A DNA stretch of 33,170 nt from the IMG/VR virus record IMGVR_UViG_2541047926_000010. One strand, 5' to 3'. Under the pieces are notes generated by a model that saw only the letters and a list, made by a program, of their open reading frames with translations, had not been told where the DNA came from and did not search any database. This DNA is from a virus. Lineage: Duplodnaviria > Heunggongvirae > Uroviricota > Caudoviricetes. Positions 3,787 through 25,812 of this stretch are shown here, in pieces. How positions within the stretch are numbered: the stretch's first letter is position 1; each line of letters starts with the position of its first letter. The position numbers were made by a program, and so were the translations under genes.

Positions 3787-4136
3787 CAGCTGACCTTAAC
3801 CGGATATTTCCAGGTCTGCGGCGTTCCGCTCGCAGACGTGACGGTGATATGAAGCAGCATCCAGCCTTTTTGCCAGTGCTCTGCAGTAACGGAAATGGAC
3901 TGGGCGCGACCGTCGTCAATAATCGGTTGCAGGGCCTGCCGCGAATACTGCACCGCGAGTTGTTGAACGCGAGACACATCCTTTTCGCGGCGGAGTGTAT
4001 GCAAAAGAGAGCCCAGAGTTGGATCAGCCCACCATGAGCCAAGGGGCGTCATCAGCCGTAAGTAGACGGCATTCGCTAAAGAGTCTGAGCTGTCGCCGGT
4101 ATAATCGCCGGTCGTTGGATCAATCAACATTTCCAT
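3786..4136 (-). CDS. Mu gp46-like small baseplate protein
   Basis: 116 aa; synteny between spike and baseplate J genes. Confidence 0.65.
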   Translation of the reverse strand: MEMLIDPTTGDYTGDSSDSLANAVYLRLMTPLGSWWADPTLGSLLHTLRREKDVSRVQQLAVQYSRQALQPIIDDGRAQSISVTAEHWQKGWMLLHITVTSASGTPQTWKYPVKVS

Positions 4137-4189
4137 GCCGTAATACTACCGGCATGGAAATTTAAATTATCGGTGAAGGGGTTCAGTGG
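4137..4189 (-). promoter_or_regulatory. Candidate activator-dependent late promoter upstream of the gp46-like baseplate gene
   Basis: Minus-strand CCACTGAACCCCTTCACC (plus 4172-4189), identical to the copy upstream of the endolysin; 23-bp spacer to a -10-like TAGTAT. Confidence 0.45.
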
Positions 4190-4225: not shown

Positions 4226-4831
4226 TTACATTTGCTGATTAGGTTTCTGCGTTGTGCCTGCATCACCGCCGTGGTCGTGGTCGTGACCGTCATAAGTCTC
4301 ACGCATGGTGTTCAGCGTAGACTTGCCGTCAGCGACTTCATTACTGCCTTTCAGCAATGGTGTATCAAAATCTGCCCGCTCTGAGGCTGTGGTTTTATAC
4401 GTTTTGGTATTAACAATATGTTGTTCGGTATTCACCGTGTGCTTTTTAGTATTAACGATATATTCATCGCAGTTTACTTCAATTATTTTTCCGCGCTTCA
4501 GAATAATGTTGCTTCCTTCATCCGAATAAATGGCAAGCTCACCACTTTTCAGGCTCTTTAGCCTGTATGCAGCGTGTTCCGTGGCAATCACCACGCTATG
4601 ACTGGTGCGCCCGTTAAGCGGGAGCACAATGGCTTTAGTCCCCCTGGGCGGGTTGGATGTAAAACCGTACTGCTGAAACATCTCCACATCCTGCAAAGAC
4701 TCAGTGGCCAGACCTTTACCCTGAATGGTCTGAATATCACCACCGCTGTTAACCCTTATTAAAACGCCCCTGAAGGCCTTTCTTATACGGTTTAACGCCG
4801 TGTTAATACGAGAGTCAATTTTGTTCCACAT
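4226..4831 (-). CDS. Baseplate spike / assembly protein V-like (Mu gp45-like)
   Basis: 201 aa; gpV-like N-terminal region; C-terminal VNT-K/E-x-H-x repeats and His-Asp-rich tail HDHDHGGD. Confidence 0.7.
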   Translation of the reverse strand: MWNKIDSRINTALNRIRKAFRGVLIRVNSGGDIQTIQGKGLATESLQDVEMFQQYGFTSNPPRGTKAIVLPLNGRTSHSVVIATEHAAYRLKSLKSGELAIYSDEGSNIILKRGKIIEVNCDEYIVNTKKHTVNTEQHIVNTKTYKTTASERADFDTPLLKGSNEVADGKSTLNTMRETYDGHDHDHGGDAGTTQKPNQQM

Positions 4832-6032
4832 CGATAATCTCCAGCTCTTTATTTACTTTGGCGCGACGCTTACGTGATTTGCGTTTTTTCGGATAAGCAT
4901 CCGGTATCCATATTCCATCCTCTTTGAGCCGCAGGGTGGTAATGGTGTTGTCTGGACGACCACCTGAAAACTCTCTTCCCATGAGGAAGTAAATGTCATC
5001 AATGCCATGTGGCTCGCTTCGGACACGAATACGCTGGCCCGGTTGCCATAACTGACCGTTCTCCATGCGATGGCCTTTAACAATTACTGTCAGATCAAAC
5101 CCGTTCAGACGGGCGTCAGCCATGGCCTTTCTCGCGCGATAATCAACCTGCGCCTGATTATCAGCATCACCAGCAACCATAATCTGCGGACGATAGAAAG
5201 GTACGGTACTGTCGCGAACGGTACTACGTAAGCCATGAAAGCCATTCTCTGCAGAGCCGGTGCTGTCATAAATTGCGTCGGCATCATCATCGTCTTCAGC
5301 CTCAGCGCTCTGATCATCAACGTCAATAACTTCCAGTCTTCCTGACTTTTTCCCCTGGCCGTGTCCCTGTGCCAGCATTGTCAGTTCAGAGAACGCACCG
5401 GTAATGGATGACCGGTCACTGAGATCGAGGACATTATTTCCCCGACCGTCACGATTCAGAACAAGCGTGGCTACAGGGTCTTTTGTGTAATCCGGCCCTC
5501 CAATTACCAGCGTGCCATCTGGCTCAAACCATGGCCATAACCCGCGTGCAGCAGCTGCACGCTCAAGGGTATCCCACGCACGTTCTCCGGGCTCCACGCT
5601 GACCTTGTCATTACGCAGGGATGACTCAGCCTCGATGCGGATGTTCGTTATCCCCAGCGGTCTGACAACCTGGGCGATCACCTCTTCAAGACTGAGCTGG
5701 CGGGAGGTAAAAACGGGTGAAGCGCAGTCAACAAGCACGGCTGCACCATCGCGACCGGAAAGAGATAAAGAAACCTGCTGACGGGATACCCGGCGCTGAA
5801 CCACATCCACCCGACCGGACATGACAACATCATTACCCACCCTGACCAGCACCGGCACACCACGTTTAATGGCCGGAGGGAAAATACCATCAGGCAGCCC
5901 AAGCGTTACGCTCCATGCATCGGAGGGGATCAGAAAATCGGAGTCAATCTGATAGCGGCTCCATGCACTATGGATTTTGCCATCAATAACCAGGCTCACT
6001 GTATTCTGCGAATCTTTATCTTGAGTAGGCAT
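4815..6032 (-). CDS. Baseplate hub protein (P2 gpD / Mu gp44-like)
   Basis: 405 aa; synteny downstream of the DNA circulation protein; gpD-like features. Confidence 0.75.
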   Translation of the reverse strand: MPTQDKDSQNTVSLVIDGKIHSAWSRYQIDSDFLIPSDAWSVTLGLPDGIFPPAIKRGVPVLVRVGNDVVMSGRVDVVQRRVSRQQVSLSLSGRDGAAVLVDCASPVFTSRQLSLEEVIAQVVRPLGITNIRIEAESSLRNDKVSVEPGERAWDTLERAAAARGLWPWFEPDGTLVIGGPDYTKDPVATLVLNRDGRGNNVLDLSDRSSITGAFSELTMLAQGHGQGKKSGRLEVIDVDDQSAEAEDDDDADAIYDSTGSAENGFHGLRSTVRDSTVPFYRPQIMVAGDADNQAQVDYRARKAMADARLNGFDLTVIVKGHRMENGQLWQPGQRIRVRSEPHGIDDIYFLMGREFSGGRPDNTITTLRLKEDGIWIPDAYPKKRKSRKRRAKVNKELEIIDVEQN

Positions 6033-7347
6033 TCAGAACGTCACCGGCTTTGATATTGTTAGGATTACGTAGTGTCGGATTGAGACGCAGCAACTCGGCG
6101 GCGCGCGTGTAGTCCTCATACCACAGGTGGGCCAGCAAATGCAGGTTTGTGTCGGACAATACCACTCGCGTAGTCAGTGGTGGTCTGCTGGTAATAACCG
6201 CTGAGCCCAGCTCCTGAACGGTCAGGGCGATATCCTTGAGACCTTCAACCACGGGTTGCCAGGTCACGCCACCAGGTGTTTCACCGGCACTCAGGTTTTG
6301 CGTATCAGCAGCAAAGGTGTCCCGCGTCTGGTCGATTGCCTCCTGAATGGCCGTCCTGGTGTCGTTGGTGATCTGCTCAATATCAACGGGAGACAGAATA
6401 TCGCTGATGCTGCTGTCACTGAGTATGTCGGAAGCATCAAGTGCCAGCTGGATTGCAACCTGAGTTTTTACCGCCGTTATCAGCTCGGTAATATCCGAGG
6501 TTGATGAGCCTGCCGGAACGGCAACAGCAACCGTTTTTTTCCCGGTCACTATCTGCTGAGGTAATGCGGCCACATCCTGCAGATTGTTACGGCCATTCTT
6601 CCAGTCGGCCATCACGATGCCTGCTGTGCCGGAAACGTCTGAGGACTGTGAATAGCTTCCTGGATTATTACTGACACTTGATTTGGACTGAAACGACGTC
6701 AGACTCAGCGCACTCTGCAGGTCATTCATGAACGATTTTGGGTAATTAACAAAATCCGAGGTGGTACTGACAAATCCCGTCAGTTCCCCCTTAAGCACGG
6801 TCACCATATTCAGCGTCGTGGTTGCCAGCGATTTCGCTTTTTTCATCCACTTTTTCGCTGTACGCAGAGGCGAGAGAATATTGTCGATGGCCGTCTGGGC
6901 TTTCTCCAGAGCGGATTGCGCCTGGTTGAAAACGATATCAGCTTTCGACAGCGGGAAATCGCTGCCAAAGAAAGGCAGATTAAGTCCCCCCTGGATAAAG
7001 ACCACTTCGACAACGCAGTAATCAACGTTCTCCGCTTCATGCGATGCCTGATACTCAATGCACTGCATGCCCGTCATGGAGCCGAAAACGGGATGAATTA
7101 ATTCTGCGCTACCGCGAGTATCCAGTGCGGCCAGAAACGCCTGCAGCCGCACATCATAATCATCACCCCAGAAAAGGACTGTCATCCGCAGGTTACGAGG
7201 CTTGCGGCCAAGATCATCAACATCACCACCGTCGACATAGGGATACTCATACGTCGCAATGTCGCGACTGGCGCTGTCACGGGTATTAACCACATCAAAG
7301 CGGACGCCCCTGAATGAGGCATCCTGTAATGAATCTTCCCAGCTCAC
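6016..7347 (-). CDS. DNA circulation protein N-like (Mu gp43-like)
   Basis: 443 aa; position directly downstream of tape measure; N-terminal region typical of the Mu N family. Confidence 0.75.
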   Translation of the reverse strand: MSWEDSLQDASFRGVRFDVVNTRDSASRDIATYEYPYVDGGDVDDLGRKPRNLRMTVLFWGDDYDVRLQAFLAALDTRGSAELIHPVFGSMTGMQCIEYQASHEAENVDYCVVEVVFIQGGLNLPFFGSDFPLSKADIVFNQAQSALEKAQTAIDNILSPLRTAKKWMKKAKSLATTTLNMVTVLKGELTGFVSTTSDFVNYPKSFMNDLQSALSLTSFQSKSSVSNNPGSYSQSSDVSGTAGIVMADWKNGRNNLQDVAALPQQIVTGKKTVAVAVPAGSSTSDITELITAVKTQVAIQLALDASDILSDSSISDILSPVDIEQITNDTRTAIQEAIDQTRDTFAADTQNLSAGETPGGVTWQPVVEGLKDIALTVQELGSAVITSRPPLTTRVVLSDTNLHLLAHLWYEDYTRAAELLRLNPTLRNPNNIKAGDVLNAYSR

Positions 7348-9497
7348 TGCGGGCCTCCTGTTGAGCCGCGAACGGATTGTTCGCCGTTGTATTCATTAAC
7401 AGCTGATGCAATTTCACGTCCGTCTAATACCAGCTTTGTGGTGAGGTTAATTGGTTGTGATTTTTGTTGCTGCTGGGGCAGCAGATAAGACGGTACGCCT
7501 GTGGTTGCTGGTGTGTTTTGACCCATAGTGGCCGGTGAACTCCACCATGATTTGATCTCATCCACGGCATCCAGCAATCCGGGGCGGGCTTTTACTGCAT
7601 CCAGCATGCGTGCTGACTCACTGGAATAATTGTCGACCTTGAGTCTCGCACGCGCATCAGCATCGCCTCGCTCAACATGAACGAGCGGCGCATCCTGCAT
7701 GCCCTGGTAGAGTGCCAGCGGAGCAGCAACGCGCCCCAGAACTTTACCTGCACCACCCCGGATAGCGGACCAGGTGCGCCCCAGAGCAGTACCGCCAGCA
7801 GACGGAACTCCCCCTGCAGGAGAACCAGGCATTTTTATTCCGCCCCCCGTCAGGAAATTGAGCCCGGCAAAAGCTACAGCCGCTGCTGTCATGGCTTTAA
7901 TGCCAGTGGTGGCACCTGAAATAGCAGTTGTTAATTCAGGATATTCTTTAGCGTAATCGGTAAGTTTTGACGTCAAATCACCGTATAAATCGGCAATAGG
8001 TTTCATTGCGTCCTGTTCAGAGAACATTTTCTCAGATTCAAATTGTTGTGACTTAAAATCATTTGTTGATGACATCACATCAAAAGATGCAGCTCCAGCC
8101 CCAGCCGAATTCTCAGTTCCTTTTATTTGATCCTTTATAAACTCACGCTTCATTATATTTGTTTTCAAAGCAGTACTAGCTTGCTGGTCAGCAATTATTT
8201 TTGACGTGATTGAAGAAACAACAATATCCAAAGCAGCGAGGATATCGTTTTCTTTATCCGTACCTTTATATTTCTTTGCCTCGCCTCTTAGTTTTTGAAC
8301 TCTTTTATCTGCTGATACAATCCCCGATACGGCATTCATAACGATGTCTGGTGTACTTAACCCATTTGTCTTTTGCTCAGCCAAATAATCAATGTAACCA
8401 AGTGCCTTTCCACCTTTCCCTCTGAATTTATACTTCTTCAAAGTATTTTGAATATCAGCACTTGTGATTTTATCAAGTAAATTATTTACGTTAGTAGATG
8501 CAGCACTGTTATCACCTGCTGTTTCTGCATTTGCCTGTAATAAGGCTAATATCTTATCAAAATCACCAAGACCAGACATACCGATACTCTTAGCTTTGGT
8601 GAGCGTTAATGATAAAGATGATGCCATATCGGCAAGTTCATACTTGCCATTTTCTCCTGAACGAATCGACTTATCATAAACAGTAGGTAAGTCTTTCGGA
8701 TCAATGTCAAAGTTTTTTATAGCGCTGATACCAATTTTAGCCAGGTCTTGTGGGTTAGCACCTGATGCTGAAGCATAACGAGTAATATCAGGCAATATTT
8801 TCATAGCCGTCTTTTCATCAAGATTACCTGCAAACAGAGCATTCAGCGTATCCTGTGCAGCTTCAGGCGTACCGCCACCGTAGCGCACCGCATTGCGGAT
8901 AGCGTTATTGATAACGGGGATTTTTTTAATACGCTCAGGACCTGACAGCTCGTTATATGCAGTGTTAGCTATTTCTGCATTACGCCGTTCGTAAGCCATC
9001 TGACGCTGAACCGGGTCTTTTATGATCATACCTGCAGCGGTTAATCCACCGGTTACTGCTGCCACGGTTGAACCAGCAGCACGAAAGCGCTGCATGCGCG
9101 TCATTGAGTCATTCACGCCACCAAGTTCAGTCCGCAGCGTTTTGACCCTGTCAGTCATGGCCCTGAAAGCCCGATTCTGCTCATTCGCGGACAGCATGCC
9201 TGTGCGGGTAAGGCGGTTGTAGGCCGCCATGGTCTGCTGTATTTCACGCTGAATATCGCGCTCAGAACGAATACCAAGGGTAGATCGCGCCGAGCTGGCG
9301 CGACGGTATTCCTCAATCAGAGAACGGGAGGCACGAATCGCTGTGGTTGAGTTCTGCTGGCGGGATTTCGCCAGCTCGTCATCGGTCTTTTGCGCCGCTT
9401 TGGTATCACGGCTGATGCCCTGCAGTGCCTGCTTAAGCACTTTAGAGCCGGTATCACGGGCAAGCAGCTGCAGCGCCAGTTGTAAGTTACGCGCCAT
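7344..9497 (-). CDS. Tail tape measure protein
   Basis: 717 aa; Ala/Gly-rich helical protein downstream of the tail chaperone; ATG 9497-9495. Confidence 0.85.
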   Translation of the reverse strand: MARNLQLALQLLARDTGSKVLKQALQGISRDTKAAQKTDDELAKSRQQNSTTAIRASRSLIEEYRRASSARSTLGIRSERDIQREIQQTMAAYNRLTRTGMLSANEQNRAFRAMTDRVKTLRTELGGVNDSMTRMQRFRAAGSTVAAVTGGLTAAGMIIKDPVQRQMAYERRNAEIANTAYNELSGPERIKKIPVINNAIRNAVRYGGGTPEAAQDTLNALFAGNLDEKTAMKILPDITRYASASGANPQDLAKIGISAIKNFDIDPKDLPTVYDKSIRSGENGKYELADMASSLSLTLTKAKSIGMSGLGDFDKILALLQANAETAGDNSAASTNVNNLLDKITSADIQNTLKKYKFRGKGGKALGYIDYLAEQKTNGLSTPDIVMNAVSGIVSADKRVQKLRGEAKKYKGTDKENDILAALDIVVSSITSKIIADQQASTALKTNIMKREFIKDQIKGTENSAGAGAASFDVMSSTNDFKSQQFESEKMFSEQDAMKPIADLYGDLTSKLTDYAKEYPELTTAISGATTGIKAMTAAAVAFAGLNFLTGGGIKMPGSPAGGVPSAGGTALGRTWSAIRGGAGKVLGRVAAPLALYQGMQDAPLVHVERGDADARARLKVDNYSSESARMLDAVKARPGLLDAVDEIKSWWSSPATMGQNTPATTGVPSYLLPQQQQKSQPINLTTKLVLDGREIASAVNEYNGEQSVRGSTGGPQ

Positions 9498-14849: not shown

Positions 14850-15965
14850 TTATTTGAGGTATTTCGCGACGCTTTCCGGGTCATTGCCCATCATTGAGCA
14901 GATGGCCGGGTCAATCGCATCATCTTCAGCACCCTGTGACGGGCGTGACGGAAGGCCTGCAGGCGGTTGCCCCTGAGTCTGACTGGTAGTCAGTGCGGCA
15001 ATCTTTGGCGCTTTTTCGATAAAGGCGGTAAGACTGGCCGGATCGGATTTCGCCAGTGATGCAGCCCATTCCTGTTGCGCCGGAAGCAGACGACCGTCGC
15101 TGAGGGCAACCGTAATCAACGCTTCAGCCTGCTGCATGGCGAGTGCGGCGGTATTACCCGCACCGGCACGCTCTGTCGCCTGCTGAACGGCTGAATGCAT
15201 GACCTCCACCGAAACCCACTTAGCCGGGTCAGGCGTGTCGAGTTTCGCCGTCAGGTCGGCGATGCTCTGCGCGTTCTGGTTCAGGATATCCAGCAGACTG
15301 ACCGACGCCGCTGCAGTCCCCTGTCCACCGGAAATCATGGTGATGATTTTTTGCAGCTCAGCCATGATCTCTTCTTTCGTTGAGGCGGTTGGCAGATTGA
15401 GCATCCAGCGCAGGTTGCTCAGTAGCTCGTTGAGAAATTCTTCATCCATTTCGGTCTGACCCTCTGTGGTTAAATGCGCGGCCATCAGGGAGGCGGCAGC
15501 AAGTAACACTTCCTCCATCCCGTCGACCGCTGGTGTATTGGTCAGCGCGGCGTTGAGCAACTCCAGCACCTGACCGGTTTTGTCGTAAGAAAATACGGGG
15601 GAAATAAAGCGATACTCTTTCGCCTCGACCATCGCAGCCGCAGCGGCTGTCCACTCGACATCGATGGCGAACAAACCTTCACCGTTCCGCCACTCCAGCT
15701 TTTTGAAGAATGCAGCTGCAGGCGCAGGCAGACCGTTTTTAGCGGCCCGAAGGGTCTGGTGTTCGTAGTCCAGGACGTAGGGGGTGTCGCGGGCATCAGC
15801 TGCGGCAATAAGGCGCTCTGCAATTTCCCGCGTCATCAGCCAGGCGGCGCATTCGGTCGGACGCCCGTCACGGGCGCGGAATTCACCAGCCGGGAAGAGC
15901 TGGATGACACCGGGAGTGGCGGTGTTAATTTCCTGGGTGAGTGAAGCGATGAGTGTCTTTTTCAT
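14850..15965 (-). CDS. Head protease / scaffold protein, Mu I-like
   Basis: 371 aa; Mu I-like N-terminal region; synteny. Confidence 0.8.
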   Translation of the reverse strand: MKKTLIASLTQEINTATPGVIQLFPAGEFRARDGRPTECAAWLMTREIAERLIAAADARDTPYVLDYEHQTLRAAKNGLPAPAAAFFKKLEWRNGEGLFAIDVEWTAAAAAMVEAKEYRFISPVFSYDKTGQVLELLNAALTNTPAVDGMEEVLLAAASLMAAHLTTEGQTEMDEEFLNELLSNLRWMLNLPTASTKEEIMAELQKIITMISGGQGTAAASVSLLDILNQNAQSIADLTAKLDTPDPAKWVSVEVMHSAVQQATERAGAGNTAALAMQQAEALITVALSDGRLLPAQQEWAASLAKSDPASLTAFIEKAPKIAALTTSQTQGQPPAGLPSRPSQGAEDDAIDPAICSMMGNDPESVAKYLK

Positions 15966-16020
15966 GGTGCCGACGATACGGCACCACTGGGGGGGAGGTT
16001 CAGATGAAGAGGTTCAGTGG
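15966..16020 (-). promoter_or_regulatory. Candidate activator-dependent late promoter upstream of the protease/scaffold gene
   Basis: Minus-strand CCACTGAACCTCTTCATC (plus 16003-16020; 16 of 18 match to the other two copies); 23-bp spacer to -10-like TATCGT; 7-bp-stem hairpin GGTGCCG/CGGCACC (15966-15985) next to the ATG. Confidence 0.45.
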
Positions 16021-22363: not shown

Positions 22364-22614
22364 TTGTCCTGTTTCCTGTCCAGTTTGTTATCAATGCGCT
22401 CGATAGCCGCTCGCAGCTCCCTCATCGCATCCATCATTGCGGTGTAGTTACTTTTCGCATCCTCACGGCGCTGGTATTCATCCCGGATGCGATCAACCGC
22501 CTTTTCCAGGTCGGTGATGTCTTTTTGCAGACGACGTATCCAGATGGTGCCGAAGGTTGCAGCCAGCGCCAGCGCAATCTGAAAGGCCATATCAAGAGTC
22601 ATAATGTTTTTCAC
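22360..22614 (-). CDS. Mu gp25-like small membrane protein (possible lysis regulator)
   Basis: 84 aa; N-terminal hydrophobic helix then charged coiled-coil-like region; adjacent to spanin genes. Confidence 0.45.
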   Translation of the reverse strand: MKNIMTLDMAFQIALALAATFGTIWIRRLQKDITDLEKAVDRIRDEYQRREDAKSNYTAMMDAMRELRAAIERIDNKLDRKQDK

Positions 22615-23243
22615 TTCCTGTAATACTCATTTATTGCCTGCAGCCTGCCCTCAAGGAGCTGGCACCATGCGCCGTATTCCGCTGAAAACGACACTATTCC
22701 AGTGGGGGAGAGTCCGCCACCGGTGCCTGTGGTCTGGCCGGTATGACCAGGAGCGCCGCTGGCGGTGGCTGGCAGATGCTGACCAGCGGGGAGGCTTTCG
22801 GCTCCTGGGTAGCCGAAGGCTTCCCGGAAGAGCTGCAGGCCCCCAGGGCCAATGCCGGTATAACCAGGACCATCTTTATCAAGTGCATCTTTAAGCCTCT
22901 TTTTAAGATCGCGAACAGTCTCGTCATGTGCCTTTTGCTTTTCAGCCAGCTCGCGGGTCAGCGCATCCGCTTTCTGCTGCCAGGCGTTCTGCTTATCAAG
23001 TGCAGCCTTCAGGTCAGCTGCATACTGATTCGCAGCACTGAGCCGCTCCTGATCCCACTGCCGTTCTTTTTCACTGAAACCATCAGTCAGGCTTTGCTTC
23101 TCCTTGCTGAAGGCCAGCGCCTGAGCGTCCAGCTTGTTGCCTGTGATGAAGGTGCCGAACCATATCCCGCTGCCTGTCAGAACCACGACGACGAGCAGCG
23201 GTTTCCAGCTAACCCTCAGGATTTTCTGGGCTGCTTCCCACAT
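22611..23243 (-). CDS. Inner-membrane spanin (Rz-like)
   Basis: ATG 23243-23241 (MWEAAQKILRV); N-terminal transmembrane helix LLVVVVLTGSGIWFGTFI, coiled-coil centre, Gly/Pro-rich C-terminus; track ORF extends further upstream to 23333. Confidence 0.7.
   Translation of the reverse strand: MWEAAQKILRVSWKPLLVVVVLTGSGIWFGTFITGNKLDAQALAFSKEKQSLTDGFSEKERQWDQERLSAANQYAADLKAALDKQNAWQQKADALTRELAEKQKAHDETVRDLKKRLKDALDKDGPGYTGIGPGGLQLFREAFGYPGAESLPAGQHLPATASGAPGHTGQTTGTGGGLSPTGIVSFSAEYGAWCQLLEGRLQAINEYYRK
22694..22888 (-). CDS. Outer-membrane spanin lipoprotein (Rz1-like), embedded in another frame of the i-spanin gene
   Basis: From ATG 22888 with GAGG 8 nt upstream; signal MHLIKMVLVIPALALGA then lipobox Cys; short Pro-rich mature part with a second Cys. 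Confidence 0.6.
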   Translation of the reverse strand: MHLIKMVLVIPALALGACSSSGKPSATQEPKASPLVSICQPPPAALLVIPARPQAPVADSPPLE

Positions 23244-23472
23244 CGCGCACCTCTCTGGCTCGTTTGATGGACATATGTTTTGATGCCTGGCTCTGTGCCA
23301 CCCACGCGCCCAGATAGGTGAGATACAGTTCACCGGGTGTTTCGGGACGGGTAACGGTGAGCCAGACCAGCACGAAGGAACTGACCAGGAAGGCCAGAAA
23401 AACGATGGTGTCTGACGTAGAGAGACGACCGGTGGCCGGGTTCGTCACCAGATCGCGCAGAGATATTTTCAT
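23209..23472 (-). CDS. Holin-like small membrane protein
   Basis: 87 aa; hydrophobic IVFLAFLVSSFVLVWLTV; ATG overlaps endolysin stop (ATGA); between endolysin and spanins. Confidence 0.4.
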   Translation of the reverse strand: MKISLRDLVTNPATGRLSTSDTIVFLAFLVSSFVLVWLTVTRPETPGELYLTYLGAWVAQSQASKHMSIKRAREVRDVGSSPENPEG

Positions 23473-24113
23473 AGCGCCGCCTTAGCGACATTCAGCCGCG
23501 CCACGCGGTCAGCCTGACCTTCAGCCGGAGGGTTGATACGCCGGGTTACGGCCAGAAAATTGCCTTTGTCAGCCAGCTCGTTGCAGCCATTTGCCTTCCA
23601 GTACCAGGCAGCGCTGCGGGCTGCGTTGAGATACTCCAGTAACAAATCGGGATTCGCGATGAGATCGAGGCCCAGCGCCTTACCGCAAAGGCGGTAATTA
23701 TCGCGCAGGGTAATCTGAATCAGGCCACGTCCGCGAAAGCGCCAGCCATCGCCTGATGCTTCATTACCGTTACCCCCCTGATTTGCGTAAACATAATTGG
23801 CCATTTTTTCAGGATTACGGGTATAGCGGCGGGCAAATTCCACCTCTCTCGGCTCGATAATACGATTCTTATTGAGATCGAAGTCGCTGCGGAAAATACG
23901 CGCCACGCGCTCAGCATCTGAGTAATAGAGATTTTCACTGAGCCGACTGAAACCCGCGCTCTCATGGCCGGTTTGAGCAATAAAGGCGGCAAGTCGGGCG
24001 GGTGTATTAATTTCGAATTCAGCGGTGGCTTTACTGAATGGTTCAAACCAGCGTTGCGCCATTACTGGCGAAAGGCCTGCGGCTCGCTGAAATTGTGGGA
24101 GTGTTAAAAGCAT
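23469..24113 (-). CDS. Endolysin, glycoside hydrolase family 19 (chitinase-like)
   Basis: 214 aa; GH19-like motifs FRGRGLIQITLRDNY and AAWYW; no N-terminal signal-anchor-release segment. Confidence 0.8.
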   Translation of the reverse strand: MLLTLPQFQRAAGLSPVMAQRWFEPFSKATAEFEINTPARLAAFIAQTGHESAGFSRLSENLYYSDAERVARIFRSDFDLNKNRIIEPREVEFARRYTRNPEKMANYVYANQGGNGNEASGDGWRFRGRGLIQITLRDNYRLCGKALGLDLIANPDLLLEYLNAARSAAWYWKANGCNELADKGNFLAVTRRINPPAEGQADRVARLNVAKAAL

Positions 24114-24190
24114 AACGCCATCCGGTTAAAAAGGAATGGCGTCAGTATTTCATCGGGTTAGGTGAATAATCAGGTGAAGGGGTTCAGTGG
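24114..24190 (-). promoter_or_regulatory. Candidate activator-dependent late promoter upstream of the endolysin gene
   Basis: Minus-strand CCACTGAACCCCTTCACC (plus 24173-24190); 23-bp spacer to -10-like AATACT; imperfect hairpin 24115-24142 directly before the ATG. Confidence 0.5.
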
Positions 24191-24191
24191 T

Positions 24192-24671
24192 TTATTCAGT
24201 CACATCTATTATTATGGGTTCATTCGATTCTGGTTCAACATCTTTTTTCACCATGTATTCCCCCTTTGCTTTAGCTTCATCAATCAATGGGAGATATCTA
24301 TAAACAATTTTCCATACTTCTTCATCTTGTTTAAAGTCAAGATTGCGGCATGCTTGCCTCTCATTCATAGGGTCTGTTGAGTTCATTTTATCAGGATTGG
24401 AAACCAATAAAATTTTCCTCCATGCGCAAGATTTCGTTTCGTTTTTCTTTATGAAATCAAACCCGCCCGTTTTAGAACTGCCTGTCTGATATGCAAAAGC
24501 TAAATTCCTTTGTGCCTGATAGCCGTCTTTAATCGCCGCGTTAATGAAATCATTCTCAGTCTTAATCGATCCCTGTGCTTGCTCAGGAATATTTAGTTTT
24601 GTTAATTGGCCGTTGTTAGCCATGCTGTTAAAGCTAATTAAAATACAACCGGCAGCAATCAAACATTTCAT
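24192..24671 (-). CDS. Secreted protein of unknown function (AT-rich moron)
   Basis: 159 aa; Sec-type signal MKCLIAAGCILISFNSMA; AGGAG 5 nt upstream of the ATG; by eye clearly more AT-rich than the flanking phage genes. Confidence 0.65.
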   Translation of the reverse strand: MKCLIAAGCILISFNSMANNGQLTKLNIPEQAQGSIKTENDFINAAIKDGYQAQRNLAFAYQTGSSKTGGFDFIKKNETKSCAWRKILLVSNPDKMNSTDPMNERQACRNLDFKQDEEVWKIVYRYLPLIDEAKAKGEYMVKKDVEPESNEPIIIDVTE

Positions 24672-24679
24672 AACTACTC

Positions 24680-25114
24680 CTAAAAAAGTGAGTTTTGTGT
24701 TGAGGTTCCATTACTCTTTTCCGCAGCAAGAAGCTGCCAACCGAAGCGATCACTAAAACCATACTTAGGGCAAAGAAAGGTCATGGCCATAAGAGAGGAT
24801 GAACCTTGTTCACGCACTTCGGCGAACTCGGCGAGAAAGCGGCGGTTGCGTAATTCACGAAGGGCACGATCACAGCGCGGTAAATAGAGAACTTCTCCGC
24901 CGAAATTCTTGATGAGTAATTGGGTTTTATCATCGCCGATAGTATTGCGCAGGAGGGCTGCGCGGCTGGCCCCCATAGCGCGGAGGCCTTTACCTATCGG
25001 GAACGTGGTGCCACCAAAAGCAGAAAGAAGCTGCTCGGTCGCCGGGAAGCCTATCAGGTCAGCTATTTGAATCACTGCTGATGGCAGCAGCTCCGTTACC
25101 TGTTCCAGATTCAT
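24680..25114 (-). CDS. Mor/C-family transcriptional activator
   Basis: ATG 25114 (MNLEQVTELLP; track ORF begins upstream at 25150); GGEVLYLPR segment resembles the Mor/C conserved core; directly downstream of gemA. Confidence 0.75.
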   Translation of the reverse strand: MNLEQVTELLPSAVIQIADLIGFPATEQLLSAFGGTTFPIGKGLRAMGASRAALLRNTIGDDKTQLLIKNFGGEVLYLPRCDRALRELRNRRFLAEFAEVREQGSSSLMAMTFLCPKYGFSDRFGWQLLAAEKSNGTSTQNSLF

Positions 25115-25535
25115 TATTACGCTCCCGCTTTTTTCGCCGACTCGCATCAATGCTGAGAGCCTGCATGAGTTTGGTTAACTGTTCAGTCGTCAACCACTCG
25201 ATGTATTTGACGTGAAACATATGATCGCACATTTTCTCGGCATAATTCCACGGACGTTTTGCATCTGCAAGTAATGCGTTAATTTTAGAAAGAATTGACT
25301 CGCGCGTATTGGCAACCTTTGGGCGTCGACCGTGTTTTACTGAGTAGCGAGGAAAACCCTTGTCATGCATATATTCCATGACAGCCTGCAGCTCGTCGAG
25401 GGTGCATTTAGTGGATGATGTTTTACCGTTGCATAAGCGAGACAGAACACTACGGTAGGTTACCTCATCCCACCCCAGATATGCCTGACCGGCTTTAATT
25501 GCCCCTATAAGGCCTCGTTTTGCTGGCGTGGACAT
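25059..25535 (-). CDS. gemA: GemA-like protein (DUF1018-like)
   Basis: ATG 25535 with AGGAG 7 nt upstream; N-terminal MSTPAKRGLIGAIKAGQAYLGWDEVTYRSVL typical of the GemA family; followed by a Mor/C gene as in Mu. Confidence 0.75.
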   Translation of the reverse strand: MSTPAKRGLIGAIKAGQAYLGWDEVTYRSVLSRLCNGKTSSTKCTLDELQAVMEYMHDKGFPRYSVKHGRRPKVANTRESILSKINALLADAKRPWNYAEKMCDHMFHVKYIEWLTTEQLTKLMQALSIDASRRKKRERNNESGTGNGAAAISSDSNS

Positions 25536-25563
25536 AATATTTCTCCTGTTGGTTGTCATTATC

Positions 25564-25587
25564 GCAGGCACTTTATGAAGTGCCTGC
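25564..25587 (-). promoter_or_regulatory. Perfect 10-bp inverted repeat with 4-bp centre upstream of gemA
   Basis: Plus GCAGGCACTT TATG AAGTGCCTGC; lies between the last accessory early gene and the gemA ribosome-binding site; no U-tract follows. Confidence 0.4.
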
Positions 25588-25602
25588 TGTAATGACTTAC
25601 TT

Positions 25603-25812
25603 TCAAGGTTTCATTTTGCTGACTGATATACCACCGATTTTCCCTTCGACCCTGACAACCAGACGACCATTGCGCATATGCCAGGCTGCCGGGCGGGTTA
25701 TTACAGTTTCCCGCTCCGATACACCAGGTGTCAGGTAATAATGGAACTGTGAGTCAACGGGGAAGCGCTGGTTAAAGGTCTTTGCTGTCAGATTTCTCAG
25801 GAGATGTCCCAT
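25603..25812 (-). CDS. Hypothetical early protein (69 aa)
   Basis: ATG 25812 with GGAGG 6 nt upstream; overlaps upstream gene end. Confidence 0.5.
   Translation of the reverse strand: MGHLLRNLTAKTFNQRFPVDSQFHYYLTPGVSERETVITRPAAWHMRNGRLVVRVEGKIGGISVSKMKP

Follow-up and report, generated by a model that had tools for sequence, protein, structure and literature searches.

Gene organisation and regulatory signals of the locus

The window, meaning the whole stretch of 33,170 nucleotides that was analysed, is a prophage of the Mu-like kind, with its genes read on the minus strand. The genes of a transposase, a B-like ATPase, GemA and a Mor-family protein were found at its high-coordinate end, and they were followed by the lysis, head and tail genes. 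The minus-strand order in the region of interest was GemA, Mor-family activator, ORF159, GH19 endolysin, DUF2644 membrane protein and Rz-like spanin (Table 1). ORF159 was located, as an earlier note on this DNA had claimed, between the activator gene (mor) and a candidate endolysin promoter dependent on that activator. The region of interest was 95% identical to a prophage in E. coli FDAARGOS_1303, and among 5426 complete E. coli genomes the locus was present in that one alone.

ORF159 had a GC content of 0.371, whereas that of the window as a whole was 0.529 and those of the endolysin gene and mor were 0.54 and 0.51. Just 1.0% of the 480-nt segments of the window were equally AT-rich, and the sole other such stretch lay near 7800-8980. 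The GC3 of ORF159 was also low (0.36 versus 0.50-0.54 in the flanking genes), which indicated that the AT bias was at the codon level and was not merely due to the amino-acid content. The deviant composition, which the earlier note had judged by eye, was thus borne out by calculation. A search of 5.8 billion proteins returned 24 relatives from Enterobacterales, and the dN/dS of ORF159 against homologues of 94-96% identity was about 0.1-0.2, indicating that the reading frame is under purifying selection. A meaningless open reading frame was excluded by this conservation and the dN/dS.

The AGGAG ribosome-binding site, which is visible in the sequence itself and stands 5 nt ahead of the ATG, overlapped the mor stop codon TAG (24680-24682), with 8 nt between the mor stop and the ATG of ORF159. 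At the other end, a single nucleotide separated the TAA of ORF159 (24192-24194) from an 18-mer, CCACTGAACCCCTTCACC. Both the dedicated ribosome-binding site and the close contact of the stop codon with the endolysin-promoter 18-mer had been pointed out before. No sigma-70-like site was found upstream of ORF159 on the coding strand by a consensus scan, which weak promoters could escape, and no terminator-like site was found in 23300-25700. Because of the 8-nt spacing, the overlap of ribosome-binding site and stop codon, and the lack of a detected promoter or terminator, the best reading is that ORF159 closes the transcription unit that contains mor. Judging from this arrangement, the protein would be made together with the activator in early or middle lytic growth.

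The 18-mer was found three times in the window, each time before a late operon, and a 21-mer version was found at the same three positions in related phages. We take the three sites to match the layout of the Mu promoters Plys, PI and PP. By analogy with Mor and C of Mu, the 18-mer presumably corresponds to the imperfect dyad that an activator of the Mor family would occupy some 43 nt upstream of the start site. Furthermore, all three late leaders possessed a hairpin ending at the start codon, and in the endolysin leader compensatory changes were found in two of the ten pairs among ten sequences.

Table 1. Positions of the genes, protein segments and regulatory sites discussed in the text
Feature	Position	Strand	Remark
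18-mer, exact second copy	4172-4189	minus	upstream of gp46-like baseplate operon
Baseplate hub protein, Mu gp44/GpP-like	4815-6032	minus	405 aa; Pfam GpP-like_1st, Gp44-like_2nd, NMB1110-like
18-mer, third copy	16003-16020	minus	two mismatches; upstream of head protease gene
Rz-like spanin	22611-23333	minus	
DUF2644 membrane protein	23209-23472	minus	
GH19 endolysin	23469-24113	minus	first gene of late lysis operon
Conserved leader hairpin	24111-24145	minus	ends at endolysin start codon
18-mer CCACTGAACCCCTTCACC	24173-24190	minus	imperfect dyad; candidate site for the activator at the endolysin late promoter; right edge of cargo slot
ORF159	24192-24671	minus	predicted secreted Sel1-like-repeat protein, 159 aa, phrog_5882; ATG start
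Acidic/proline linker and C-terminal tail	24195-24257	minus	aa 139-159; low confidence
I-I-D-V motif	24201-24212	minus	aa 154-157, within the tail
Helical core	24258-24560	minus	aa 38-138; Sel1-like motif DGYQAQRNLAFAYQTG…KSCAWRKILL; pLDDT mostly >85
Predicted signal peptide	24618-24671	minus	aa 1-18, MKCLIAAGCILISFNSMA, followed by NN; SPase I type, non-lipoprotein; rule-based
AGGAG ribosome-binding site	24677-24681	minus	
Mor-family transcription activator gene (mor)	24680-25150	minus	directly upstream of ORF159 and probably co-transcribed with it
GemA	25059-25571	minus	

Predicted export and fold of the ORF159 protein

The N-terminus of ORF159 consisted of MK, the stretch CLIAAGCILISF and N-S-M-A, with cleavage predicted before the following N; the 12-residue hydrophobic core had a mean Kyte-Doolittle value of 2.6. 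The same rule-based layout (positive n-region, hydrophobic core, small residues at -3 and -1) was found in 24 of 24 close homologues, in agreement with the Sec-type signal peptide proposed earlier, and the protein is predicted from it to be exported to the periplasm. A lipoprotein was rejected: Cys9 stands too early in the sequence to belong to a lipobox, and it is not conserved among the long-form relatives from enterobacteria. Lipobox-like sites did occur in some distant relatives. No signal for export beyond the periplasm was found in ORF159. In addition, the core contained the invariant residues Cys82 and Cys108 in consecutive helices (78-91 and 99-108) of one hairpin, and these are likely to form a periplasmic disulfide.

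Searches of Pfam, of PDB sequences and of PADLOC gave no annotated family for ORF159, nor for the other cargo proteins described below. In PHROGs ORF159 was assigned to phrog_5882, of unknown function (E 7e-21, aa 37-134), and a short Sel1-like form matched the same family with E 8e-31. An exhaustive profile search extended the family to 156 clusters of representatives. They had in common a conserved core of about 80 residues, A-x-x-G-D-Y-Q-A-Q-R-N-L-A-Y-x-Y … P-x-x-A-C-A-W-R-x-V-I-L … D-x-x-N … C. The predicted fold was an alpha/alpha repeat as in Sel1-like proteins. The family profile matched the SEL-1 repeat protein 8sxq in the PDB with the repeats in register (E 9e-4), and also 6ok3 (E 0.018), both with borderline significance. 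Sub-threshold matches to Pfam Sel1 (PF08238) were obtained for 10 of 36 relatives (best E 0.0067), and a structure search of BFVD returned weak matches named Sel1. ORF159 itself scored below the PF08238 gathering score, and it comprised about two hairpins and a capping helix rather than three or more tandem Sel1 repeats. It is called here a divergent minimal Sel1-like domain and not a certified member of PF08238.

The structural neighbours of ORF159 included periplasmic regulators such as SflA and the host-interaction proteins c5321 and LpnE. The bacterial periplasmic Sel1-like proteins SflA, HcpB, c5321/EsiB, AlgK and LpnE possess three or more repeats; ORF159 differs from them in its smaller size of about two hairpins, and also in falling below the Pfam threshold, in being phage-borne and in having a C-terminal linker and tail. 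No similarity in sequence or fold was found to the known lysozyme inhibitors Ivy, MliC/PliC, PliI and PliG. A periplasmic lysozyme inhibitor, one of the functions suggested in the earlier note, is accordingly not favoured for this all-helical protein.

No homologue of ORF159 was found in phage Mu, where three small ORFs and C lie between mor and the endolysin gene. Elsewhere the family was repeatedly associated with GemA and Mor. In 30 of the 64 IMG/VR loci obtained from a broad family alignment, these two genes lay on the same strand and no more than about 1 kb away, in the order GemA-Mor-X or GemA-X-Mor, where X is the family member. For instance, a 121-aa relative was found in the order GemA-Mor-X-GH19-DUF2644, and a distant relative from a high-GC organism directly followed a Mor gene. 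In Mannheimia phage 3927AP2, the homologue was located between GemA and Mor and was annotated with flanking terminators. The family gene was less GC-rich than its flanks in most loci.

The cargo slot between mor and the endolysin promoter

Further loci were fetched via the Mor protein instead of ORF159, which removed the selection bias. The gap between the Mor and endolysin genes was 430-630 nt in all 21 loci where both could be placed, and it was always AT-rich (GC 0.37-0.45 versus 0.50-0.61 in the flanks). Six types of cargo were distinguished in it. Type A was the long Sel1-like form, as in the window; type B was a secreted protein of 160-170 aa (phrog_29261), and type C was its relative of 144 aa. 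Type D (165 aa) had several predicted membrane helices, type E was a secreted protein of 177-178 aa (phrog_36303), and type F was the short Sel1-like form of 117 aa. The diversity was counted as at least five unrelated families in near-identical phages (types A-F), and the predicted product of every type was a secreted or membrane protein, with sizes of 117-178 aa. A scan of IMG/VR with the 21-mer promoter motif gave 17 endolysin-promoter loci, which carried type B (eight), D (three), A and F (two each), and C and E (one each). A type B gene also occupied the slot in Klebsiella phage ST405-OXA48phi1.1.

Compared with the window, the phages with type B or D genes had Mor proteins of 90-93% identity and endolysins of 96-98% identity. 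Since the backbone was nearly constant while the cargo genes differed, the cargo has been exchanged. The right edge of the exchanged segment was sharp, with homology returning 1-3 nt past the stop codon at CCACTGAA. The left edge fell in the last 30-50 nt of mor, and the final mor codons varied with the cargo type. The cargo start overlapped the mor stop or lay 0-20 nt from it in every type. Neither ORF159 nor the cargoes of types B, C, D and E matched a PADLOC model. The slot is best read as a cargo hotspot and not as a moron with its own signals. It is always filled, by replacement rather than by insertion or absence, and ORF159 belongs to a set of cargo genes that replace one another in this enterobacterial clade of Mu-like prophages.

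The description of ORF159 as a separately acquired moron held in part. Cassette swapping, with unrelated AT-rich genes of similar size in the slot, was in line with separate acquisition; a one-off event was not, since many Mu-like phages, some of them with high GC, have a family member next to GemA/Mor. Classical lambdoid morons are genes placed between a pair of conserved genes and equipped with a promoter and a terminator of their own. ORF159 was like them in its deviant composition, its variability among close relatives and its position between conserved genes, but it lacked a detectable promoter and terminator of its own, its ribosome-binding site overlapped the mor stop, and its slot was always filled. 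Cargo hotspots are known from other temperate phages, such as the defence hotspots of P2 and P4 and the anti-CRISPR slot of Pseudomonas Mu-like phages. There, as here, unrelated accessory genes are swapped at a fixed site flanked by conserved genes among near-identical phages. The present slot differs from them in its position from mor to the endolysin promoter, in its cargoes being envelope proteins of 117-178 aa throughout, and in the lack of a match to known defence or anti-defence genes.

The C-terminal peptide and the possible function of ORF159

The type A proteins ended in a variable acidic/proline-rich stretch, then [LV]-x-I-I-D-V, then one to five residues. The tail of ORF159 was …ELEIIDVxx, and I155, D156 and V157 were invariant in type A tails. 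The tail was common to two cargo families, the Sel1-like family and an unrelated four-helix-bundle family. These were rejected as diverged homologues, because profile alignment (hhalign) joined only their last 13 residues and the predicted folds differed. The tail codons varied synonymously (ATA/ATT/ATC, GAT/GAC, GTG/GTT/GTA), and cargoes D, E and F lacked the motif before the same promoter. Retention of the tail as promoter DNA was rejected on these grounds, which indicated that the cargo tail is selected at the protein level.

A counterpart of the tail was found in the baseplate hub protein, whose C-terminus was …KKRKSRKRRAKVNKELEIIDVEQN, with ELEIIDV at 4827-4847. When all reading frames of the window were considered, the hub was the one ORF besides ORF159 that ended in the tail motif. 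Among 27,058 positions of the window, a position matrix derived from 23 distinct cargo tails scored highest at the C-terminus of the hub, where KELEIIDV, 3 residues from the end, gave 21.9 bits, more than the 20.6 bits of the tail of ORF159 itself. A score of 21.9 bits was reached in 1 of 300 shuffles anywhere and in 0 of 300 near a C-terminus. In 80 hub homologues, a lysine/arginine-rich stretch was followed by [LV]-x-I-[IV]-D-V at the C-terminus; Mu, Mannheimia phage 3927AP2 and SuMu had hubs with different C-terminal ends. A reading of the tail as a TonB-box-like or TolA-box-like beta-strand motif for a host energy-transducing protein, suggested by its resemblance to such motifs, was set aside, as the hub match was the more specific lead.

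For all ten tail-bearing cargoes with a known hub on the same contig, the hub tail was of the I-[IV]-D-V type, although the loci are related and the counts are not independent. Klebsiella phage ST405-OXA48phi1.1 likewise had an I-[IV]-D-V hub tail, and the short Sel1-like forms lacked a tail where the hub of their phage ended otherwise. Strict co-variation of the hub tail and the cargo tail was rejected, since the tail-less types D, E and F occurred in phages with the hub tail and the II and IV variants did not track. The occurrence of these tail-less cargoes also indicated that the tail is not required for the function of the slot. No mimics of other hub tails (…VAIVKVWEK, …GSWELGK) were found in the available loci of other clades.

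It is somewhat unlikely, though to be weighed seriously, that the resemblance of the two tails has no function: the hub end would then follow from overlap with the ribosome-binding site and start of gp45, and the cargo tail would be a motif for stability, folding or proteolysis, or a relic of recombination. In the hub genes, GAT GTG was invariant at the DNA level and contained the gp45 start codon, and CTG GAG/GGG constituted the gp45 Shine-Dalgarno sequence. Part of the hub motif is thus fixed by gene overlap, which favours this explanation, as do the lack of fine co-variation and the tail-less cargoes beside hub tails. However, two hubs (L201 and L205) in which the gp45 start lies further downstream still had …VAIIDASNK and …VAVVDV as their ends, and in the hubs the codons for I-[IV] varied only synonymously, which indicated that the hub motif is also kept at the protein level. 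The protein-level selection of cargo tails in two unrelated folds, and the best match of the window falling at the C-terminus of the hub, also argue against it.

ORF159 is tentatively regarded as a small periplasmic accessory protein of the envelope that acts in superinfection exclusion or interference against related Mu-like phages; exclusion is the best fit among the functions suggested in the earlier note. As for the way in which it might act, it is rather unlikely, but would join the present observations, that unrelated periplasmic heads, the Sel1-like domain and the four-helix bundle, display the C-terminal peptide of the hub as a portable decoy, giving kin-directed exclusion by mimicry of a virion protein, with exchangeable modules that have their own slot beside the late activator gene. 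Such a decoy would fit the envelope nature of the cargoes, the unrelated replacements expected under conflict, the presence of the tail on two heads and its absence where the hub differs. It does not account for cargo types D, E and F, which may have other modes of action.

In phage Mu, the hub C-terminus contacts the spike's N-terminus and the tape-measure protein's C-terminus at the tip of the tail tube, and these contacts jointly seal the distal end of the tail channel (PMC11915804). The authors of that study proposed that changes at the channel end release the spike and the tape measure during infection (PMC11915804). Made together with the Mor-family late activator, the ORF159 protein would act on the cell envelope under arms-race selection. 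In the least certain step, its tail would mimic the C-terminal peptide of the hub. The peptide, carried on a flexible linker, would bind the partner of the hub tail as the tip of an incoming tail opens in the periplasm, the candidate partners being the tape-measure C-terminus, the spike N-terminus and a host entry factor. Alternatively, the tail might occupy a host site that is used by the hub tail. Either the capture of the partner or the occupancy of the site would block DNA delivery by phages of the same clade, and the Sel1-like head might add affinity, stability or a second contact.

If transcribed only with mor, ORF159 would be silent in a resting lysogen, which makes exclusion by the prophage less obvious. 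Exclusion during lytic growth, with a timing like that of Imm and Sp of T4 or Llp of T5, is possible by analogy. Sp and Imm of T4, Llp of T5, gp15 of HK97 and SieA of P22 are small secreted or membrane phage proteins that block the entry of other phages, and those of T4 and T5 are made early in lytic infection. This early timing matches that deduced for ORF159, which has no relation in sequence or fold to any of the five proteins. To our knowledge, none of the five carries a copy of the terminal peptide of a virion protein.

Ltp of the Streptococcus thermophilus phage TP-J34 targets the tape-measure protein. Ltp is described as a surface-exposed lipoprotein of superinfection exclusion (PMC3952083). 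Like ORF159, it is a small phage-encoded extracytoplasmic protein with helical repeats, and it engages a component of the incoming tail tip and stops DNA entry, which is what is proposed for ORF159. Ltp is, however, a lipoprotein of a Gram-positive siphovirus that is expressed from the prophage and has helix-turn-helix repeats, whereas ORF159 is a predicted soluble periplasmic Sel1-like protein with mor linkage and a hub-like tail. In a literature search that covered part of the journals, nothing relevant was found on Sel1 proteins, either of Mu-like phages or as agents of superinfection exclusion.

A role in tuning lysis is improbable. ORF159 would in that case bind the endolysin, the spanins, the DUF2644 protein or the peptidoglycan machinery and set the timing or completeness of lysis, like an antiholin or an endolysin inhibitor. 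The slot adjoins the lysis cassette, also in distant relatives, with GH19 or lysozyme genes downstream, and the protein is predicted to be periplasmic and probably made before the late genes. Such a role is also favoured by the example of EnhC, a Sel1-repeat protein in the periplasm of Legionella that inhibits the lytic transglycosylase Slt. However, the endolysin of 96-98% identity and the same lysis genes stood beside unrelated cargoes, so ORF159 is unlikely to be their dedicated partner. Moreover, other Mu-like phages had the family gene between GemA and Mor, at a distance from the lysis genes, ORF159 had no similarity to known lysozyme inhibitors, and its hub-like tail would be left unexplained.

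Equally improbable is a takeover of the host envelope, in which ORF159 would bind a host periplasmic protein of peptidoglycan remodelling, stress sensing or transport and favour replication without exclusion. Sel1-like repeats are protein-binding modules, SflA is among the structural matches, the gene position suggests early or middle timing, and the alternative cargoes are all envelope proteins. Nevertheless, a housekeeping function is not expected to be swapped among near-identical phages, and the tail shared with the hub would again find no explanation.

Lysogenic conversion, with expression from a prophage promoter in AT-rich DNA and an altered surface or interaction with animals or plants, is the least probable: the DNA is AT-rich and foreign-looking, c5321 and LpnE are host-interaction proteins, and some bacterial Sel1-repeat proteins alter the surface or host interaction, but ORF159 belongs to an operon that should be repressed in lysogens, with no promoter-like site upstream on its coding strand, no terminator downstream and no signal for export past the periplasm, its tight mor linkage is conserved across cargo types, and its family is tied to the Mu-like regulatory region in many host lineages rather than to pathogens.

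Accessory envelope genes in phage hotspots are known as a general kind. The definition of the slot and its cargo set, the recognition of phrog_5882 as a minimal Sel1-like fold tied to GemA/Mor, and the tail peptide shared with the hub are new; no paper describing the slot, this fold assignment or the shared tail was found in a search that covered part of the journals. The accessory genes of phage hotspots are a main source of new mechanisms of interference between phages and between phage and host, and most of those acting at the envelope have no known mechanism. If the resemblance of the tails is functionless, ORF159 would be an uncharacterised cargo gene of the ordinary sort, in a slot that is well mapped. 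If the decoy proposal is true, it would show how Mu-type phages exclude their relatives, of which we know of no description. It would also point to a function of the flexible hub C-terminus in DNA delivery, and it would provide a small peptide handle for blocking infection by the phage group to which ORF159 belongs.

Candidate late promoters and their leaders

The 18-mer CCACTGAACCCCTTCACC was present three times in the window, always on the minus strand, with two exact copies and one copy carrying two mismatches. In related IMG/VR phages, a 21-mer version occupied the same three positions. By analogy with Mu, the three copies look like candidate activator sites, and the three late promoters that they would mark parallel Plys, PP and PI of that phage. 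Each of the three late leaders contained a GC-rich hairpin, the 3' arm of which extended into the start codon, and no obvious Shine-Dalgarno sequence was found in any of them. When ten endolysin leaders were compared, compensatory changes were observed in two of the ten pairs of the endolysin-leader hairpin. A possible role of these hairpins is stabilisation of the 5' end or translational control.

A sigma-70-like site (TTGAAC and CATAAT, 16 nt apart) was located just upstream of the endolysin 18-mer, in the 3' end of ORF159, the AT-rich gene for a predicted secreted Sel1-like-repeat protein. This site is probably not significant, because the number of such sites around ORF159 equalled the chance expectation.

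Features located in the window
Feature	Coordinates	Strand	Position or property
CCACTGAACCCCTTCACC copy	24173-24190	minus	upstream of endolysin gene
CCACTGAACCCCTTCACC copy	4172-4189	minus	upstream of gp46-like baseplate gene
CCACTGAACCCCTTCACC copy, 2 mismatches	16003-16020	minus	upstream of head protease gene
Late-leader hairpin	24111-24145	minus	endolysin leader
Late-leader hairpin	about 4128-4160	minus	GC-rich, 3' arm into start codon
Late-leader hairpin	15965-15986	minus	GC-rich, 3' arm into start codon
Sigma-70-like site	24211-24238	minus	
Hub gene terminal codons	4815-4850	minus	
Tape-measure gene	7344-9497	minus	
Tape-measure AT-rich middle	7800-8960		
Rz-like gene	22611-23333		
Nested ORF	22694-22927	minus	
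mor final codons (about 10)	24680-24720		

Tail and lysis genes

The terminal codons of the baseplate hub gene, CTG GAG ATT ATC GAT GTG, include the ATG of the gp45 spike gene, which overlaps the hub gene 3' end, together with its Shine-Dalgarno sequence. Further, GAT GTG was invariant among the enterobacterial hub homologues with a D-V tail. The middle of the tape-measure gene had a GC of 0.41, locally down to 0.35, while both ends had 0.56; it was the sole other stretch of the window matching ORF159 in AT-richness, and may be a mosaic segment. The peptide specified by the ORF nested in a different frame within the Rz-like gene is rich in proline and carries a lipobox (…LALGAC…). These traits are typical of an Rz1-type outer-membrane spanin whose gene is embedded in that of the inner-membrane spanin.

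Distant relatives and the cargo boundary

The high-GC Mu-like phage L112 (IMG/VR 3300045950_000028) encodes a distantly related Sel1-like family protein at about 2001-2498, between the head-morphogenesis (gpF-like) and protease genes. In Pseudomonas Mu-like phages, anti-CRISPR genes are carried at this position. In four other distant proteins (P0034, P0039, P0042 and P0049), all from short contigs, the Sel1-like domain was fused to the C-terminus of a lipoprotein or membrane-anchored domain of 150-200 aa.

The final codons of mor, and the matching region in the related phage loci L021-L045, varied with the type of cargo gene downstream. Hence, on its left side the cargo has its recombination boundary within mor, and the C-terminal end of Mor is exchanged together with the cargo.
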